NCBI RefSeq assembly: GCF_963921235.1
Contig: NC_086108.1
Location: forward strand, 77,068,001-77,132,000
Source: Mobula hypostoma
Taxonomy: Eukaryota
Direction of reading: 5' to 3'
DNA: 64,000 nt
The translations under genes and the position numbers were made by a program. Shown one piece after another: positions 431 to 56,294 of the stretch (its first letter is position 1; the number at the start of each line of letters is the position of its first letter). Under the pieces are notes generated by a model. It saw only the letters and a program-made list of their open reading frames with translations, made no database searches and was not told the DNA's origin.

Positions 431-643
431 GATTATCAGTCATTCATTTATACTCCAATGCAAATGAGCTTGTCTTTAATCATTAAACAATACTTTCATC
501 ATGGGAATGAAATTAACATGTATATAATTTCTTAGATAAAAAGAAATGCACTGTTTGTTTTTACTAAACCTCAAATCTTGAGGAAGTTTAATCTTAAATG
601 TGGCCTTAAGTATATAAAGGCCAAGCATTCAAAGGGCACACCC

Positions 644-742
644 CAATTAACAGCACTGATGATGACTCCTTGTATGGTGATGAAACGTTTGCAATTAACA
701 GCACTGATGATGACTCCTTGTATGGTGATGAAACGTTTGCAA
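644..742 (+). repeat. Perfect 48-bp tandem duplication; each unit holds a hammerhead-like core (probable PLE terminal region)
   Basis: caattaacagcactgatgatgactccttgtatggtgatgaaacgtttg at 644-691 and 692-739. Each unit reads gca-CTGATGA...GAAA-cg-TT-tgc. Confidence 0.85.
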
Positions 743-1173
743 GTAAATTGCCAAGATCTGAGAACCACTCAATCCAACCAGTTGTATATCTCTTTGCATC
801 TTCTGTAGGTGATTTTCCAACCTGGCTTTATAAGATCAATGCACATAAGTCGCAATTTCCCATGTTATCTATCATGAATGGAAGTTCTAAATAGCAAATA
901 TCCTTGAAATAATACTTGTAGCCGCCTTTGAGTAGCAGTCATCCTGCCTAAAATGACGCATTTATTCTGTCCTTTCAGATAGTCTTTCATGCTGGTTAAT
1001 ATCTAAACTCCATACTTTCCCAACCATGTAAGCTCCTTTAGTTTATATAAAGCACTTGTTTGGCACCCTGCACAGATTCATTTTGATGTACTAAACAGTG
1101 CCTTGAAAAAGTAACACACATCAAAGTTGCTGGTGGACGCAGCAGGCCAGGCAGCATCTCTAGGAAGAGGTAC

Positions 1174-1507: not shown

Positions 1508-2863
1508 TTAGCGGAAGTTAGAGAAGTCAGTGTTCATGCCATCAGGTTGGAAGCTACCCAGACGGAATATAAGGTGTTGTTCCTCCAACCTGAGTGTGGC
1601 TTCATCTTTACAGTAGAGGAGGCCGTGGATAGACATACCAGAATGGGAATGGGATGTGGAATTAAAATGTGTGGCCACTGGGAGATCCTGCTTTCTCTGG
1701 TGGACAGAGCATAGGTGTTCAGCAAAGCGGTCTTCCAGTCTGCGTCGGGTCTCGCCAATATATAGAAGGCCACATCGGGAGCACCAGACGCAGTATATCA
1801 CCCCAGCCGACTCAGGTGAAGTGTCGCCTCACCTGGAAGGACTGTCTGGGGACCTGAATGGTGGCAAGGGAGAAAGTGTAAGGGCATGCGTAGCACTTGT
1901 TCCGCTTACAAGGATAAGTGCCAGGAGGGAGATCAGTGGGGAGGGATGGGGGGGACGAATGGACAAGGGAGTTGCATAGGGAGCGATCCTTGCGGAAAGC
2001 AGAGTGGGGGGGGGAGGGAAAGATGTGCTTAGTGGTGGGATCCCGTTGGAGGTGGCAGAAGTTACGGAGAATATTATGTTGGACCCGGAGGCTGGTGGGG
2101 TGGTAGGTGAGGACCAGGGGAACCCTATTCCTAGTGGGGTGGCGGGAGGATGGAGTGAGAGCAGATGTGCGTGAAATGGGGGAGATGCGTTTGAGAGCAG
2201 AGTTGATGGTGGAGGAAGGGAAGCCCCTTTCTTTAAAAAAGGAGGACATCTCCCTCATCCTGGAATGAAAAGCCTCATCCTGAGAGCAGATGCGGCGAAG
2301 AAGGAGGAATTGCGAGAAGGGGATGGCATTTTTGCAAGAGGCAGGGTGGGAGGAGGAATAGTCCAGATAGCTGTGAGAGTCGGTAGGCTTATAGTAGACA
2401 TCAGTGAATAACCTGTCTCCAGAGATAGAGACGGAAAGATCTAGAAAGGGGAGGGAGGTGTCGGAAATGGACCAGATAAACTTGAGGGCAGGGTGAAAGT
2501 TGGAGGCAAAGTTAATAAAGTCAACGAGCTCAGCATGTGTGCAGGAAGCAGCGCCAATGCAGTCGTCGATGTAGCGAAGGAGAAGTGAGGGACAGATACC
2601 AGAATAGGTACGGAACATAGATTATTCCACAAAGCCAACAAAAAGGCAGGCATAGCTAGGACCCATACGGGTGCCCATAGCTACACCTTTAGTTTGGAGG
2701 AAGTGGGAGGAGCCAAAGGAGAAATTATTAAGAGTAAGGACTAATTCCGCTAGACGGAGCAGAGTGGTGGTAGAGGGGAACTGATTAGATCTGGAATCCA
2801 AAAAGAAGCGTAGAGCTTTGAGACCTTCCTGATGGGGGATGGAAGTATATCGGGACTGGACAT
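1508..2863 (-). pseudogene. PLE reverse transcriptase + GIY-YIG endonuclease, disrupted
   Basis: ORFs 2622-2957 (part), 1812-2618 and 1508-1801 join into one polyprotein. One in-frame TAA at 2622-2624 and one frameshift near 1812. Confidence 0.92.
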
Positions 2864-3212
2864 CCTTGAAAAGTACTTGGCTCCCACAACCATTTTCCCA
2901 TTGTCTAAATTTAAAATATATTAAAGTATGATTATTTTGAGCTAATCTACAAAACATTTGATTTGGTATGATGCATAAAGGGAAATTCCAAAGCTTGTCA
3001 ACAATCTTCTAAGAATTAAAAGCCAAAATTCTGAGGCTGAAAAAGTATTAATTCGCTTTGCTATACTAATTTTCCTCAGGTACAATATTGTATATTACCT
3101 TACCAACTCAACCAATTTGTTGAATTAGAAAACAGGAGGATGACCTGAGCAAGTACCCCCTTCGCTCTGTAAGGTCCAATAGTATGGTAGATTTTGAACA
3201 GATCAAACCAAA

Positions 3213-12460: not shown

Positions 12461-12685
12461 CAATATGTACAAACTGCTGGAGTAACTCAAAGGCCAGGGA
12501 GCATCTATGGTAAAGGGTAAACAGTCGACGTTTTGGGCTGAGACCCTTCACCAGTCCCGATGAAGGGTCTCAGCTTGAAATGGCTACTGTTTACTCTTTT
12601 ACATAGATGCTCCCTGATCTGCTGAGTTTCTCAGCATTTTGTGTGTATTGTTTTGACTACCAGCATCTGCAGTTCTTTTGTTTGT
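12461..12685. mobile_element. Fold-back (inverted pair) of PLE terminal units with two decayed HHR motifs
   Basis: 12461-12551 is the approximate reverse complement of ~12558-12650 (gagacccttca / tgaagggtctc; gggagcatctatg / catagatgctccc). Confidence 0.85.
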
Positions 12686-14345: not shown

Positions 14346-15963
14346 ATAAGACCTTAAGATATTGGAGCAGAATTAAGCCATTTGGCCCATTGAGTCTGCT
14401 CTGCCATTTCATCATGGCTGATTCAATTTTCTTCTCAGCCCCAATTTCATGCCTTCTTCCTGTATCCCTTCATGCCCTGACCAATCAAGAATCTATCAAC
14501 TTCTGCCTAAAATATACATAAAGACTTGGCCCCCACAGTTGCCTGTAGCAAAGAATTCCACAGGTTCACCACTGACTGGCTAAAGAAATTCCTTCTCATC
14601 TTCATTCGAAATAGATGCCCCTCTATTCTGAGACTGCGCCTCTGGTATTAGACTCTCCCACTTCTCCACATCCACTCTATTGAGGCCTTTCACCATTTGA
14701 TAGGTTTCAATGAGGTCACCCCTCATTCATCTGAATTCCAGTGAATATAGGCCTAGAGCCATCAAACGCTCTTCATATGACAGGCTATTCAATCCTGGAA
14801 TAATTTTTGTGAACCTCTTTTGAACCCTCTCCAGTTTCAGCACATCCTTTCGAAGATAAGGGGCCAAAATCTGCTCAGAATACTTCAAGTGAGGCCTCAC
14901 CAGTGCTTTATAAAGTCTCAACTTTACATCCTTGCTTTTACATATATTCCAGCTCTTTTGAAATGAATGCTAACATTTCATTTGCCTTCCTCACCATAGA
15001 CTCAACCTGCAAATTAACCTTTAGAGTATCCTGCCACAAGGACTCCCAAGTCCCTTTGCACCTTATTTTTCTTTGCATTTTCGCTCCATTTGGAAAATAG
15101 TCAACCCTCTCATTTCTTTTACCAAAGTGTATGTCTATACACTTCCCAACACTGTATTCCATCTGCTGCTTCTTTGCCCATTCTTCTAATCTGTCTAAGT
15201 TCTTCCGTAGCCTCTCTACTTTTTCAAAAATACCTGCCCCTCCACCTATCTTCATATCATCTGCAAACTTTTCAACAAAGCCATCAATTCCATCATCAAA
15301 ATCATTGACATATAACATAAAAAGAATCAATCCCAACACAGACCCCTGTAGAACAGCACAAGTCATCAGCAGCCAACCAGAAAAGGCTCCCTTTATTCCC
15401 ACTCTTTGCCTCCTGCCAATCAACTACATAAGCCCTGATGAAGAGTCTGAACCCGAAATGTCGACTGCGGTCTTTTCCATAGATGCTGCCTGGCCTGATG
15501 AGTTCCTCCAGCATTTTGTGTGTGTGGTGCTTGGCCTATAGTTTCCTTTCTTCTGCCTTTCTCACTTCTTGAAGAGTGGAGTGACATTTGCAATTTTCCA
15601 ATCTTCCAGAACCGTTCCTGAATCTAGTGATTCATGAAAGATCATTACTAATGCCTCTGCATCTCTTCAGTCACCCTGCTTCAGAACTCTGGGGTGTACA
15701 CCATCTGGTCCAAGTAACTTCAGGCCTTTCCGTTTCCCAAGAACCTTTTCTCTAGTTATGGCAACTTCACACACTTAATGACCCCTGACACCTGGAACTT
15801 CTACCATTCTGCTAGTGTCTTCCACCATGAAGACTGATGCAATATACTTATTCAGTTTGTCTGCCATTTCATTGTTCCCCACTACTCCCTCTCCAGCATT
15901 GTTTTCCTGTGGTCCGATATCCAATCTCGCCTCTCTTTTACACTTTATGTAACCAAAGAAACT
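14346..15963 (-). mobile_element. CR1 LINE fragment (RT and C-terminus), internally deleted
   Basis: ORFs with QGSVLG, KFADD and LYKALVRPHLKY. 3' tail at 14346-14420. Confidence 0.92.
15431..15532 (+). mobile_element. PLE terminal unit beginning at an HHR motif, inside CR1
   Basis: agcc-ctgatga-agagtctgaaccc-gaaa-tg-tc-gact followed by the PLE tail catagatgctgcctggcctg...cagcattttgtgtgtgt. Confidence 0.8.
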
Positions 15964-16359
15964 TGTAGATACATAAAGTCTAAGCGAGAGGTAAAAGTGG
16001 ATGTCAAACCATTGGAAAATGATACTGGAGAGGTAGTAATGTGTGACAATGAAATGTGCTACCTTTGTTCGTGGGTGGCAAGGATAAGCCGATTACAGTT
16101 AAGACTCACTTACAGGGATCATATCACATAAGGTCTGCTGAGTCTAACATCAAAGGCAGGAAAGATATTGGAAAAAATTGTGAAAGACAGGGATATTTAA
16201 TTTACCTTTGTTAGAAGGAGTGTCCAAAAGGCAGTACTTACATGGACTTGAGTAAGGAATTTGATGTCCCACAGAGGAGACTGGTCCAAGAAGTTAAAGC
16301 TGATAGCATCCAAAAATGACAAATTAGTTCTAAGATTGGCTTATTAATAGGAGGCACAG

Positions 16360-17688: not shown

Positions 17689-20226
17689 TAGGTAAGTTGG
17701 TAAAATGGGTAGTGCACTCGTCGGTGTTATTTAATCCAGGTAAGTTTGGGGTCATGCACGTTGGGAAGGCTAACAAACTTGGATTGAAGTGATGGGGTAA
17801 TAGGAATATTGAAGAACAAAAGGTCCTTGTTTAACAAGTCCTAGGATTCACAAAAATAAAACAGGGAGACAAAATGGAGAAGGAGATAAACAGGCTATTC
17901 GCCTTCATTAGATAGGGCATAGAATGGTACTTCATAAAACATTATTCAGGCCACAGCTAGAGAAATTCTGTCAGCACAGCTAAAGAAAGGATGTGATTTC
18001 TCCAGAGAGGGAGCTGAGAAAATAAACCAGGAACGATGTGATTAAACTGAAAAGGGTGAAAAGGAGATTTACAAGGATGTTGCCAGGACTCTGGGGACTG
18101 AGTTATAAGGAGAGATTGGACAGACTGGGCTTTTACTCCATGGAATATAGGAGACTGATGGGGAATCTTATCAAAGGATATAAAATCATGCCGGGCATAG
18201 GTAGGGCAAGCAACCTTTTTTTTCCCCAGAGGACATATATTTAAGGTTAGAGGTGAAAGGGTTTAATGAAGAGCCTGGGGAGCAACATCTTACACAGCAG
18301 GTAGCAGTTGTGTGGAATCACAGGAGGTGCTTGAGACAGGGTGCACGTGATACATTGAAGTATATGGACAGGCATGGATTACAAGAGTTTGCAGCGGTGA
18401 TTCCCAGTGGGGTGGTTCCGTGTCCTAAAGAGGAGTTAGGGGAGATAGTCAAGGTTCTTAGGGGACGACAAGCAGCACATTTACTTGAGGTACGAGACCT
18501 GACCGTTACTACAGCAGGTACTTGCAAAAAAACAAGGATGAGGCACTGGAACACAGAAAGAACTATAGCTCTACTCATCGTCACAATGCATCTGAAACTC
18601 GACAGTCTCATCCGAACCTTACCAACCAAATAGACATTATTGAGATACATAAATCGGCAACCAGGGCCCCCTTGACTCATGGCACGGAACAAGTTCATGC
18701 AATTTAACAAATGGTAAGTCAAGTACACCCTCTCAGCTGTCTCTACAGATCTACAGAAAACAGGTCACAGAACAATACAGTGCTGGCGGGAACCGAAAGG
18801 TGAAATAGCGCCAATCAGGGAAATTGCTGACCCCTAGGATTCCTCTTGAGGTGTTCAAAGTGACCTCGGCTTCATATGCACGGTTAAGAATCATCTTCGG
18901 GAATTATGAGACCTACGTGAGTGGTCAATTGCGCTAGCTGGAATAGTATAAAGATAGCTTGCTGAACACCAGCTCTATCCCGACTAACACTCAGGTTTCA
19001 GTCTGAATCCTTGTCAACGTAATTTTCACAGTTGTGATCGTCTTCATCTTTGCCTTGCTGTTCCTTTGCATGCCGCTACCATCGTTCCATCCGTGTCAAT
19101 ACGCTGCCATCGTCAACATCTGATCGGCATTCCCAGTTTGTGTTTTTTAAAAATTTTAATTTAGTTCCTTTAATAATGGATATATATGTAGGGTGTGATC
19201 TCTATGAGTCTGAAGGCGGTGAAGCCTTGAATTCTAATCCTGCTAAGAAACAAAACTACAGGAAGTGCCTCAATACAATGTTACTTACCTGGAGTATGGT
19301 TTTATTCCGTTCCCGTCAGATCAGCGACGCCTCATGTTTCTTGTTTATAATACTGTACTGTCTAATGAAGCCACGAAACCATCAAGGTTGCAGGAACAGA
19401 TTCCCTGAAAAGACCACTTATGGTATTGCTCAGTTCCAGATGAAAGAAGCATTTGAAAAGCGTTGCGCACTCGTCATTTGCCAAGAAAGCTAAAAATGAC
19501 CTTGATAGCGGTCTCATTGCTTCTTATAGCATTTCCAAAATCATAACAAAGTGTGGAAAATCTCATACAACTGGTGAAAGATTAATAATGCCTGCTGTAT
19601 CAGAAGTGCTCACCACTGTTCTCAAAATGGACACCAGTATTTTATAATCAATTCCTCCGAGTAGTAACTCTGGTAGCTCATCATATTGACGAAATGAGTG
19701 AAGACATTAAGTATGTCTATTCACAGAGCTACAAAAAACAGAATTTGGGATACAATTCGATGAGTCAACTGTGCCAGACAACAAGGCATTGCTAATGGCA
19801 TATGTACAGTTTATCAAAAATGGGAAAGTTTATGAAGAGATTCACTTTTGTAAAAAGTTAAAAACAAATATCAATGGAGAATCAATCTATGATGAACTCA
19901 AAATGTATATTGAGGATAAAATTATTCCAAATAGGAACATGATTTCTTGTGCAACAGATGCAGCACCAAGGTCACCATGCTGGTTTAGTGGCATTTATGA
20001 AAAAAGAAATTCCAAGTATGTTTGCAATCCATTGTGTGATTTATCATCAACATCTCACAGCCAAAAACCTTAGTGACTTTTTTCAAATGTGACTCTTGTA
20101 ATATCTGTTATCAACAAAATTAAAGCTCATCCATTAAATAGCAGAATATTTTCCCAGTTATGCCTAGATAATGATGAAGAGTTTGAACACTTGCTTCTTC
20201 ACACTGAAGTGTGATGGCTGTCAAAA

Positions 20227-20448
20227 GTCATAGTCATAGTCATAGTCATACTTTATTGATCCCGGGGGAAATTGGTTTTCATTACAGTTGCACCATAAAT
20301 AATTAAATAGTAATAAAACCATAAATAATTAAATAGTAATATGTAAATTATGCCAGGAAATAAGTCCAGGACCAGCCTATTGGCTCAGGATGTCTGACCC
20401 TCCAAGGGAGGAGTTGTAAAGTTTGATGGCCACAGGCAGGAATGACTT
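20227..20448 (-). mobile_element. Rex1/Babar 3' end with microsatellite tail, nested in the hAT transposase
   Basis: (gtcata)4 tail. Minus strand reads KSFLPVAIKLYNSS. Contains a 26-bp-period duplication accataaataattaaatagtaata. Confidence 0.75.
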
Positions 20449-33509: not shown

Positions 33510-33587
33510 GACCATAAAACCATAAGATATAGGAGCAGAAGTAGGCCATTTGGCCCATCGAGTCTGCTCCATCATTTCATCATGGCT
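33510..33587 (-). mobile_element. CR1 3' tail
   Basis: accataagatataggagcagaagtaggccatttggcccatcgagtctgctcc. Confidence 0.75.
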
Positions 33588-35874
33588 GCGATGTCGCAGG
33601 CATCAGCACACCCGAAATACAATGGGGTAGCCTCGTCCTGGGATAACCGCCTTAATAATCACAGTGTCTCCCCTGCCAGGTAAATATGAAGGATTTTTAA
33701 CTCAAGCAAATTTTTAGAAGTAAAAAGTTTGCTTAATTTATCTCAACAAAATCATGAGCAATTTACATTCATTGGATGCTCCATTCAACTTCAACGTTTT
33801 TGTGTATTCTTTGGTAAAGAGAGACCTATCAATTTTATTTACCATCTGTCATTCTGGATGAGCACAGTTGCATCCTAATGAATAGTTAACTAGTTCGCCA
33901 AGGAATGATATGTTTCAGTCTAGATTAAATTTGGATTTTAGCTGTGAATAAAATTGTTTATTAGAAACCTTTTTCATCATGGTCTATGTAATAATTAGTG
34001 AAAAAATCTTTAGTAAAAAAAATACAGAATGAGCTCATTAAAACTCTGCAAAATTATTGATCGGAGATCCATGATTATGAAGATAGAGCATGGCTCCATG
34101 CAGTTTGGACCAGAGGATAGGAAACCCATAAAAAATATCAAAAATTACAATATACAGTGCCATATAATTTCTCAGTAAGGGACATATCACTACATAAGGA
34201 AGAAAGCCCATAAATGGTCTCAAATGTGCATCCAGCTAGAGGAGGAGATGGCACAGTGCAAGCAGTGCTCAGCTGTGCATGAGATCTGGCAAAAATTTAC
34301 TAGAACATTTCCCAATTGAAAGGCAATATCCCATCACCCATTTCCAGGCTACAATGTTCGTATATTCAAATAAATCAAATCTGTTATACAATCCCGTTCT
34401 TTCAGCAAAAGGAGACATGTAAACCTTAATTGCTAAAGCATGGGTAGTAACAAAACTCTTAACAAATCCATTACCAAATATCTCCATGTTTACTTATAGT
34501 TTCTTTATTTGTTTATCACCATTCTTATTCTTGTGCCAGAACTTTTCATTGAATGTAGATATATTTTCTAACTAGTAAATCTGTGCCCCAAAATGGTTGC
34601 AAAGTTAAGATAATACATCCAGGAGCACTGGCTATGTGAGGTGGGACTTGCCTCAGTGATGCTCAGTTTGGGTCCTGCTCCCAATTTCCATCTCCCTTGA
34701 GCAGTATGACCATACGTAGGCAAGGCAAGAAGTTCCCTTTTGTACCGAAACTAGGAGTTTGGAATGAAACAATCACAGTCAGTAGAAATGGCTGTGTTTG
34801 CCTTTCTTTCACAGTTGAAATCCAGTTGTGCTAATGATCTCCTTCAGCAATGGAAATCCTAAACTTGAGGGATTTGAGTGAATCTAAGCATAAGGCTATG
34901 ACTCTTAACTCCTCACTGTGCAAAAATCTGCAGCATTACCCTTAGTAATTCATCCTGAATACCTTCTTGTGCCATTTATTGATTGTTTATCATTGAACTT
35001 CCTTTCGCTACTGAGGCTGGAGATGACTTTGGCACTCACTGCCTGTCTCATTCGCTTTGTTAGACTTGCAGATGCATAGCATTGAAGTGAGTTATACTTT
35101 CAGTTTTGAAAAAGGGTCTTGGACCCAAAGTATCTATTTCTCTTTCCATTCATGGTATCTAAACCTGCTAAAAATTTTCAGTGTTTTCTGTTTTTATTTA
35201 TGCTTTAGTATTTGTCCTTTAAAGTCATTAATTATTTCCTGGCTAGTCACTGAGCACGTATTAGTAAGCCACCCCAACTATCAGCGCAACCTCCCTTTGT
35301 TTATCTGTAGTGCCTTTCACGGTATTTTCATTTCAATTGATTGCTCTTTTCAACCTTACCTCTGCCAACACCTTCTCCTAATTTTTAGAGAACCCTTGGA
35401 CGTTGGTCTCAGTGGATGCACATTCCTTCACCTTCTCTTCTCATTGTCTTCTTCCTTTGTCACTTTGTCATACTAGGATTATTTGTGAACATCCAAGATC
35501 CATTAGTTTTTGATCCAGGTAGCAAAAGCAGACTTCCCTATCTCCCAACAGAAGGGAACCATTCAAAGTTCAAAGTAAATTTACAAACGTTTGTATTATC
35601 CAAGTATGTATATGTCACTATATACTACCCTGAGATTCATTTTCTTGTAGGCTTTAAGAGTAGAGAGATTCCCCAATATACATGCTAAATTAAGAGTTTA
35701 CCTTGACATATGGATGTTGACATACGAAATATCTAAGCAGGCAACATACTACTTTATCTTAAATCCTATTTTGATATAAAATCTATTTATATCTAAAATG
35801 TCAAGAAAAATCCTCAACAATTTTTGAATGTTGCACTGATAAAATGGAAGAGTATATTGTCCCACCACTCCAGA

Positions 35875-47173: not shown

Positions 47174-47416
47174 TACCACAAACACGAGAAAATTTCTAGA
47201 TGCTGGAAAACCAAAGCAACACACACAAAACGCTGGAGGAACTCAGCAGGCCAGGCAGCATCTACCGTACAGCATAAACAGTTGGTATTTTGGGCCGAGA
47301 CCCTTCATCAGGACTGGTAAAGTCCTGATTCCAGTCCTGATGAAGTTGACTGTTTACTCTTTTCCATAGATGCTACCTGGCCTGCTGAGTTCCTCCAGTA
47401 GTTTGTGTATGTTGCG
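47174..47416. mobile_element. Fold-back PLE terminal-unit insertion with TSD
   Basis: Inverted arms 47216-47317 and 47331-47415. TSD ctgatattagg at 47163-47173 and 47417-47427. Confidence 0.88.
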
Positions 47417-55265: not shown

Positions 55266-55411
55266 AACTGTTCGGCAATGGTCTTCTGCCTCAATTAAGT
55301 GGCATAGTGTCATAAATAAATGAAGGGAATCCAGCTATTTCTACAATTGGTTTCTGTTCCTTAAGAGTTGCCCCAAATAAGCGGTTCCCCCACTTAACCG
55401 ATGGCCAAATA

Positions 55412-56294
55412 AGACCATAAGATATAGAAGCAGAATCTGCCCCACCGAGTCTGCTCCACCATTCATCATGGCTGATCCAATTTTCCTCTCAATCTCCTGC
55501 CTTCTCCTCATATGCTTTCTCCTCATATCTCTTCATCAATAAAGAATCAGTCAAGACCCTTCAAGAATCTATCAATCTCTGCCTTAAATATACATAACTG
55601 CTTGGCCTCACAGCTGCCTGTGGGAAAGAATTCCACAGATTCAACACCTCTGGCTAAAGAAATTCCTCCTCACCTCCATTCTAAATGGAAGCCCCTCTAT
55701 TCTGAGGCTGTGTCGTCTGGTCTTATGCACTCCCATCATAGGAAACAGCCTCTCCGTATTCACTCTATCAAGGCCTTTCATCATTCAAATAGGTTTCAAT
55801 GAGGTCACTCATTCTTGTGAATTCTAGTGAATAAATGCCCAGAGCCATCAAATGCTCTTCATATGACAAGCCATTCAATCCTGGTATCCTTTTCATGAAC
55901 CTCCTTTGAATCCTCTCCCGTTTCAGCTCATCTTTTCTAAGATAAGGGGCTCAAACCTGCTCCAAGTGAGGCCTCACCGGTGCTTTATAAAGTTTCAACA
56001 TTATATCCTTGCTTTTGTATTCTAGTTCTCTTGAAATGAATGCTAACATTGCAATTGCCTTCCTCACCACAGTCTCAACCTGCAAATTAACCATTAGGGA
56101 ATCCCGCACAAGGACAGCCAAGTCTCTTTGCACCTCAGTTTTTTGTATTTTCTGTCTATTTAAAAAGCAATCAACCCTTTCATTTCTTCTACTAAAGTGC
56201 ATGAGCATACACTTCTCAACAGTGTATTCCATCTGCCATTTCTTTGCCCATTCCTCTAATCTTTCTAAGTCTTTCTGTAGCCTCTCTACTTCCT
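55412..56294 (-). mobile_element. CR1 3' fragment
   Basis: VRKAIAMLAFISRELEYKSKDIMLKLYKAPVRPHLE. Same family as 14346-15963. Confidence 0.9.

Follow-up and report, generated by a model that had tools for sequence, protein, structure and literature searches.

A probably young 48-bp tandem duplication enclosing a damaged minimal hammerhead motif in a putative Penelope-like repeat fragment

Introduction

Hammerhead tandems derived from Penelope elements have already been described. Li, Clavereau & Pollet (2026, 10.64898/2026.07.22.740005) report dimers and multimers of 51-972 bp from vertebrates, including one chondrichthyan, treat dimers as a recognised retrozyme class, and propose local amplification of the end of a Penelope-like element (PLE) as their origin. 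A literature search for hammerheads in Penelope tandem minisatellites returned that work alone, and a search for Penelope, elasmobranch and hammerhead ribozyme together returned no paper. Here we analyse a tandem at positions 644-742 of a 64,000-nt stretch of DNA, the whole of which we call the window and to which all coordinates refer. An initial annotation of the tandem had proposed a head-to-tail hammerhead dimer.

The minimal type I hammerheads that metazoan PLEs carry in their pseudo-LTRs (PLE min-HHR; Cervera & De la Pena 2014, PMC4209133), as characterised there, share with the window locus the core, an extra nucleotide after A9, a short stem I, a palindromic 15.2-16.2 segment without loop 3, and an occurrence mostly as dispersed single copies from truncated elements. 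The locus fits this type except that G10.1-C11.1 is lost and stem II is broken, so that a stable helix II is missing. Its partner motif lies 48 nt away, whereas in PLE min-HHR the partner is described as ~3 kb away or inverted.

In Poseidon of Anolis carolinensis (PAc; Frangieh et al. 2024, PMC11167929), the ORF is reported to begin at stem II, where the window locus has an ATG, and the ribozyme cuts ~26 nt past the ORF start; the predicted cut here is 25 nt past the codon. PAc reverse transcription starts in an AC-rich stem-loop (PMC11167929), a region that the AC-rich tail of our fragment appears to resemble. The comparison with PAc is one of layout: unlike PAc, the locus has no ORF body, and the fragment ends 71 nt past the ATG rather than 111-118 nt.

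Non-LTR retrozymes, which derive from Penelope pseudo-LTRs (Li et al. 2026; Cervera & de la Pena 2020, PMC7229834), have head-to-tail units with type I cores, and are recognised by two or more adjacent units in tandem, each with a complete type I motif, an arrangement that is present at the window locus. Its 48-bp unit is just under the 51-972 bp of Li et al. (2026) and far under the 150-450 bp given in PMC7229834. While retrozymes are described as carrying canonical type I motifs with loop-loop contacts (PMC7229834), the window has a minimal, damaged core at a single locus, which has the tandem arrangement but falls outside the energy filter and the canonical build. Finally, tandems derived from transposons, as treated in PMC3389668, resemble this one in that a segment of an old element is doubled between short direct near-repeats at a single locus, the last unit being incomplete; the duplicated part here differs in holding a whole ribozyme motif.

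Results

Positions 644-694 and 692-742 are identical and form an exact 51-nt direct repeat with a period of 48 (Table 1), for which the chance expectation in 64 kb of the same composition is 3e-21. TRF agreed (period 48, 2.1 copies, 98%, span 644-746), bearing out the perfect 48-bp tandem duplication that had been claimed. It is one of 2 exact tandem duplications with a period of 15-200 in the window; the other, at 20292-20341 (period 26), adjoins an (AGTCAT)4 run at 20226-20250. The 48 bp amount to 16 codons and the short frame from the stem II ATG stays open (662-784), which probably has no meaning in a truncated relic.

Table 1. Features of the tandem and its host fragment, with the loci of an outside family that has the same layout
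Feature	Position	Strand	Basis
Repeat unit 1 (48 bp)	644..691	+	TRF and exact match
Repeat unit 2 and 3 bp beyond it, same sequence as 644-694	692..742	+	exact match
Microhomology CAATTAA versus CAAGTAA at 740-746, 6/7 alike; likely slippage/repair register	644..650	+	sequence
Minimal type I hammerhead relic 1, core intact, stem II damaged, predicted cut 689/690	653..692	+	
Second minimal type I hammerhead relic, same sequence as relic 1, cut predicted at 737/738	701..740	+	
Palindrome AAACGTTT, central ACGU as dimer helix III	683..690, also 731..738	.	sequence
Truncated high-copy repeat fragment built like the 3' end of a Penelope-like pseudo-LTR	607..780	+	contig depth, three DNA runs
TATA-like box TATATAAA, 33 nt upstream of unit 1, candidate promoter remnant	611..618	+	sequence
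ATG at stem II start, frame open to fragment end	662..664, also 710-712	+	
AC-rich tail; fragment ends inside it, ~18 nt before the shared family sequence fades	754..780	+	
Outside family loci	L001 5008-5101; L004 35-234 (inverted pairs); L002 4272-5038; L003 67-685 (after GIY-YIG-like frame)		

The first unit holds GCA (653-655), CUGAUGA (656-662), an extra U663 and GAAA (682-685) followed by CG, with stem II strands at 664-669 and 676-681, U16.1 at 688, U17 at 689 and UGC at 690-692. The second copy of the motif lies at +48, and the spans annotated for the motifs, 653-692 and 701-740, held position by position. Under the core definition that we used (PMC7151607), CUGANGA, GAAA and U16.1-H17 are all present in the units, as are the extra nucleotide between 9 and 10.1 (U663) and a palindromic 15.2-16.2 (ACGU, 685-688). 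The G10.1-C11.1 pair is absent, its place being taken by G664·U681. The stem II pairs are G·U, A×A, C-G, U×U, C-G and C-G, that is, three Watson-Crick pairs and one G·U out of six; this confirms the two mismatches that had been annotated and adds the G·U in place of G-C at 10.1-11.1. The A×A at 665/680 and the G·U at 664/681 are lesions common to both units. Helix II thus falls short of being stable or long, its isolated hairpin having -1.2 kcal/mol against -3.4 to -4.7 kcal/mol in controls. Helix I is short, as in minimal type I hammerheads (PLE min-HHR): stem I has the 3 bp originally noted, and the stem I of the outer core can be extended to 750.

The annotated 8-nt palindrome is real (AAACGTTT at 683-690 and 731-738), and the idea of a palindromic stem III survives for its central ACGU, which can pair. 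We ruled out the whole 8-mer as stem III by hammerhead numbering, because its outer AA/UU would pair the core nucleotides A13, A14, U17 and U1.1 and so cannot join helix III.

The initial annotation had set the stems apart from those of a '1174' family (1109-2870), and rightly so: blastn matches them over 9 nt at best (E=1.5), and the alignment is confined to core positions. Rfam, searched over the whole window at E<=5, gave no hammerhead match; this blank is uninformative because the intact-looking 1181-1205 motif was missed as well. From its letters and from the depth data below, we read the 644-742 motif as a minimal, dimer-type hammerhead of a second, high-copy family.

The window contains several further features. 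A '1174' relic on the minus strand (1109-~3000) carries the intact-looking hammerhead at 1181-1205 and RT-like frames at 1812-2621 and 2622-3008, which we take to be like the Penelope RT; Pfam gave no match for them. Seven more '1174' relics in the window cover the hammerhead region of that family. Fold-back (self-inverted) stretches of ~200 bp lie at 12461-12650, 47216-47415 and 15865-16056, the first two built from '1174' family ends. On the minus strand, 33514-33687 joins roughly the first 100 nt of U1 snRNA (Rfam 50.5 bits, E 1.2e-9) directly to a 75-nt stretch that matches a LINE-like repeat end at 14346-14420 and 55409-55474, and may be a U1-LINE chimera made by template switching. At 18205-18764, open frames overlap on both strands and are unlike retroelement protein; the frame at 18205-18630 had no PDB match.

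To place the tandem in its repeat, 4 public runs (of 24 listed) were aligned to 450-1050 at >=80% likeness: X1 (organism A), X5 (organism B) and X9 (organism C), all DNA, and X10, which is RNA by guess only. The aligned contigs numbered 1,870 (X1), 1,925 (X5), 1,789 (X9) and 71 (X10). The depth of the flanks is that of single-copy DNA (11 in X1, 6 in X5, 5-8 in X9); summed depth jumps at ~607 to thousands to tens of thousands and drops back after ~780, and because depth in these runs is not copy number we give contig counts instead. Family sequence continues past 607 and past 780 as loose ends in X1, X5 and X9 (the consensus behind 780 has an agreement of 0.48-0.52 in each), and the locus is therefore a truncated 126-bp fragment plus the extra unit. 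A CCAAT-like segment that the family has upstream of 607 is missing from the fragment, and the tail stem-loop has decayed at this locus; the family form of the tail is partly readable in the run contigs. These contigs depict a family of dispersed, high-copy, 5'-truncated end fragments bearing the hammerhead. A blastn search within the window found no further copy beyond one 24-nt match at E=0.38. One contig in each of X1, X5 and X10 joins 780 to 702, seemingly two hammerhead-bearing ends in tandem at another family locus, and the joint is common to organisms A and B.

By its layout, 607-780 looks like the 5'-truncated end of a Penelope-like retroelement. We take the TATA label of the 611-618 box from established knowledge, and its promoter role is putative. 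A bacterial promoter scan, of a type not apt for a vertebrate, found no match. No RT or endonuclease frame linked to the family was found, and Pfam had no match for 3 window frames and only weak ones (E 0.05-0.12) for 3 of 5 frames in a second search. The host repeat might instead be a non-autonomous short element bearing a hammerhead, SINE-like or a retrozyme monomer, in which case the account of the duplication would be the same. The depth peaks over short parts of the fragment and the missing coding partner would suit such an element, and retrozyme monomers are reported to be common (Li et al. 2026). However, an ATG in stem II, an open frame and a cut 25 nt on make up the layout of Poseidon as given in PMC11167929, and the family runs on upstream of 607, so that we think this identity very unlikely.

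A motif scan of metagenome contigs returned 4 loci (L001-L004), with 0 in viral contigs and 0 in genome contigs. They show no blastn similarity to the window and belong to another family. Although the scan pattern left stem II free, stem II is perfect in 5 of their 6 copies. In 2 of the 4 loci (L002 and L003), the motif lies ~205 nt after a GIY-YIG-like frame. For this frame Atlas gives a score of 0.96 to eukaryotic clusters, the top ones having GIY-YIG in 14-24% of their members; Pfam matches it weakly (E 0.05), and a stretch of 30 residues matches a window frame (E 1e-5). By analogy, these loci support the layout as that of a Penelope pseudo-LTR ribozyme, with the link of the window family to such an ORF drawn from likeness. 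Further hammerhead-like motifs occur at L001 2822-2847 and L002 1761-1791.

Variant letters of the family were reported for 610-665 and 719-744 and none for 666-718 or 745-778; we treated the latter as unreported because their counterparts in the other unit are highly variable. T accounts for 94, 93 and 97% of depth at 665 (X1, X5 and X9), which makes the A665 of this locus a rare letter, one that breaks the second stem II pair. At 729 (11.1), C makes up 33-39% of depth and, at 730, G>A 15-18%, a signature of CpG decay. Because of this pattern the ancestral 10.1-11.1 pair was presumably G-C, with alignments that favour window-like copies. No variant reaches 5% at 726, and the partner place 667 is T in both of the two readable paralog strings from which the family letter at that position was taken. 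The family stem II is thus probably GUCUCC/GGUGAC with a U·U, 5 of 6 positions pairing. The consensus that had been expected, GUCACC/GGUGAC, was right in that stem II is mostly pairable and probably wrong at 667.

The triplet GUU could be seen as another sign of decay. GUC and GUA are described as the fastest triplets, with GUU listed as active (PMC3138052). We rejected GUU as a decay sign, since U17 is the majority state of the family (other letters at 737 in 4-10% of depth) and GUU also occurs in the six copies at L001-L004, although the pattern itself selected 4 of these. GUU and the 3-bp stem I are, on these letters, traits of the family rather than decay. In the DNA runs, about half of the depth departs from the central CG of the palindrome (C>T at 734 in 19-28%, G>A at 735 in 28-33%), and relics that decay neutrally would be expected to show this. 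Both copies of the unit share A665 and the G·U at 10.1-11.1, and by these letters the unit was damaged before it was doubled.

We also considered whether the duplication is genomic and how old it is. Logan contigs are built from distinct 31-mers (PMC12424806). In a simulated k=31 graph, the left flank ended at 673 with the duplication and showed no break without it. The X1 contig covers 450-673 with 0 differences and stops at 673; that of X9 reaches 680, and that of X5 reaches 694 plus one unaligned letter. An end at 695 (665+30) is expected for a single unit with a private base at 665, the case of organism B. Because X1 stops at 673 and X5 and X9 pass it, the duplication would be young. The insertion appears to be older than the split of organisms A, B and C, and the 665 lesion older than the A-B split, with the duplication arising later, in A. 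The X10 contig (219 nt over 450-652, depth 2.5) ends before the junction and is not evidence.

The identity of the units bears on age as well. Among the pieces listed, 18 are paralogous and diverge from the locus by 9-19%, yet both units are identical; were the units as old as the family spread, the probability of 48/48 identity at that distance would be 0.001-0.01. The ortholog divergences of 1.3% and 2.8% give probabilities of identity of 0.55 and 0.26 and are too small to date the duplication, and it is possible that organism C carries a diverged duplication.

An assembly that doubled a single-unit genome would also yield perfectly identical units, and no listed contig crosses the junction: 691/692 is absent among the 32 pieces listed (5,928 further pieces are unlisted), and even the best runs lack 5 of 62 words. 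Short in-repeat unitigs would, however, fall outside the longest pieces listed, and the X1 contig ends exactly at the 673 that a duplication predicts, while those of B and C pass it. A665 makes it unlikely that words shared with paralogs caused the stop at 673. X1 is possibly the source sample, but its graph was built from reads, not from the assembly. We therefore give an artefact only a slim chance, and regard the duplication as probably genomic and young.

Alternatively, the reverse transcriptase of the element itself could have produced the tandem while inserting, through a partial-tandem insertion or a template jump. Partial-tandem insertions are typical of Penelope-like elements (PMC8557442), and the 780 to 702 joint in X1, X5 and X10 shows that the family forms tandem ends elsewhere. 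However, the insertion is common to A, B and C and the perfect tandem is not; the rare A665 is in both units; and the unit stops at 691, before the 3' end of the family, with boundaries that lie on microhomology. These points leave an origin at insertion highly improbable.

Could the two cores work together? A nested double hammerhead is feasible, with helix III at 685-688/733-736, inner stem I at 690-692/701-703, outer stem I at 653-655/738-740 and an inner loop of 8 nt. Over 640-760 this full dimer fold has -2.1 kcal/mol against an MFE of -14.8 kcal/mol. The gap between the full dimer fold and the MFE is 14.1 for the window and 11.7-13.9 for intact L002 and L003 units doubled in silico; we rejected the Boltzmann weight of the full dimer fold as a test because these intact controls score as badly. 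Nearest-neighbour energies leave out the tertiary contacts of the core. The probability of the outer core is 8.7e-7 for the unaltered sequence; C681 alone raises it to 2.9e-5, and three U665 controls reach 1.9e-4 to 4.2e-4. This places the active secondary structure 200-500-fold below family-like controls. Stem II pairs have probabilities of at most 0.11 compared with 0.61-0.83 in controls; one family-like control with four changes, on a shorter stretch, also lost stem II (P 0.02). The pairs of helix III reach 0.55; its outer, core-blocking pairs, with which it mostly forms, were nearly as likely in another calculation (0.23-0.27), and stem I stays at or below 0.05. Four folds over the unit were less stable than their shuffles (z +1.4 to +2.3), and the '1174' motif was no better than shuffles (z -0.17).

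A working cis-dimer, or newborn 48-nt retrozyme, would be transcribed from the TATA-like box or from the host and cut at 689 and 737; the 48-nt unit set free in this way could form a circle and be a template for a Penelope enzyme. Both cores are intact, the nested geometry (with outer stem I extended to 750) allows it and a TATA-like box lies upstream; moreover, dimeric and trimeric minimal hammerheads are reported to cleave weakly in vitro, the activity of intact motifs being low (PMC4209133), and the Penelope ribozyme of Anolis to be assisted by protein, which can rescue it (PMC11167929). However, stem II keeps only three Watson-Crick pairs without G10.1-C11.1, the active fold has a probability of ~1e-6, and helix III forms mostly together with its core-blocking outer pairs. 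The unit MFE of -3.8 kcal/mol (650-695, boundaries set here) misses the -5 kcal/mol cut-off for 'active' motifs of Li et al. (2026), who report no cleavage for 8 of 9 frog dimers tested. Nor do the listed pieces contain a tandem family: the same 48-bp tandem at another locus is absent from the 32 pieces listed (X1, X5, X9 and X10), and a diverged copy of 644-742 from those pieces, whose in-element length is at most ~93 nt, perfect tandems being broken up by the k=31 graph. On the modelled folds the unaltered two-unit RNA is likely inactive, and a functioning dimer strikes us as very doubtful.

Discussion

We consider it most likely that 644-742 is a passive duplication, by slippage or repair, of a dead Penelope-type relic and not a working cis-dimer. 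In the sequence of events that we propose, a 126-bp, 5'-truncated Penelope-like end would have inserted before the split of A, B and C, bringing a TATA-like box, a minimal hammerhead overlapping the ORF start and an AC-rich tail; that this end is a repeat is established. It would then have decayed by U10.2>A (665), a CpG-type C11.1>U (681) and several flanking changes, losing stem II. Slippage or break repair between CAATTAA and CAAGTAA would later have doubled 48 bp in lineage A after B split off, and the copied stretch happens to include the whole 40-nt motif, leaving two cores head to tail. The decay was read against the family letters, whereas we infer the doubling. A transcript would be expected to misfold, into a duplex of the 8-bp palindrome or other helices with stem II absent, and to cleave little or not at all. 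The result would be a neutral, two-unit, transposon-derived tandem that may grow by unequal exchange, not via ribozyme activity. The initial annotation had suggested an incipient hammerhead minisatellite with both partners in cis; the two-unit tandem form stands, and would be how a minisatellite starts, but a working cis-dimer is not supported, as the stem II lesions pre-date the doubling and the active fold is predicted to be almost unpopulated.

Two models quoted in PMC3389668, those of Taylor & Breden and of Haber & Louis, invoke duplication across direct repeats of 5-10 bp and slipped-strand mispairing that leaves the last unit incomplete. According to the same source, transposons gave rise to 23% of human minisatellites and slippage models cover only 6% of those, so the exact mechanism here is uncertain; break repair is described as an alternative source of small tandem duplications (PMC8355091). 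That a young duplication encloses a whole motif somewhere in a large genome is not surprising, because the window alone has 8 relics of the '1174' family over its hammerhead region in addition to the 607-780 locus.

There is a faint chance that the locus is a retrozyme at birth, in which one slip produced a protein-helped cis double hammerhead behind its own TATA-like box, releasing a 48-nt unit. If so, the unit would be smaller than the 51-bp minimum of the vertebrate survey (Li et al. 2026), with the unduplicated allele persisting in a sister species. If the unaltered two-unit RNA cleaves, a single slip would free a dimer-dependent ribozyme from its need for a partner and create a very small retrozyme unit.

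The passive duplication that we favour, an ordinary microduplication in a decayed relic of a known ribozyme class, has a more modest value, as a dated example of the passage from a Penelope end to a hammerhead tandem, with the order of insertion, decay and duplication taken from sister species. By this example, some 'retrozyme dimers' recognised by a tandem plus a motif may have arisen through passive copying of motifs already dead, and this would agree with the report by Li et al. (2026) that 8 of 9 dimers were inactive.
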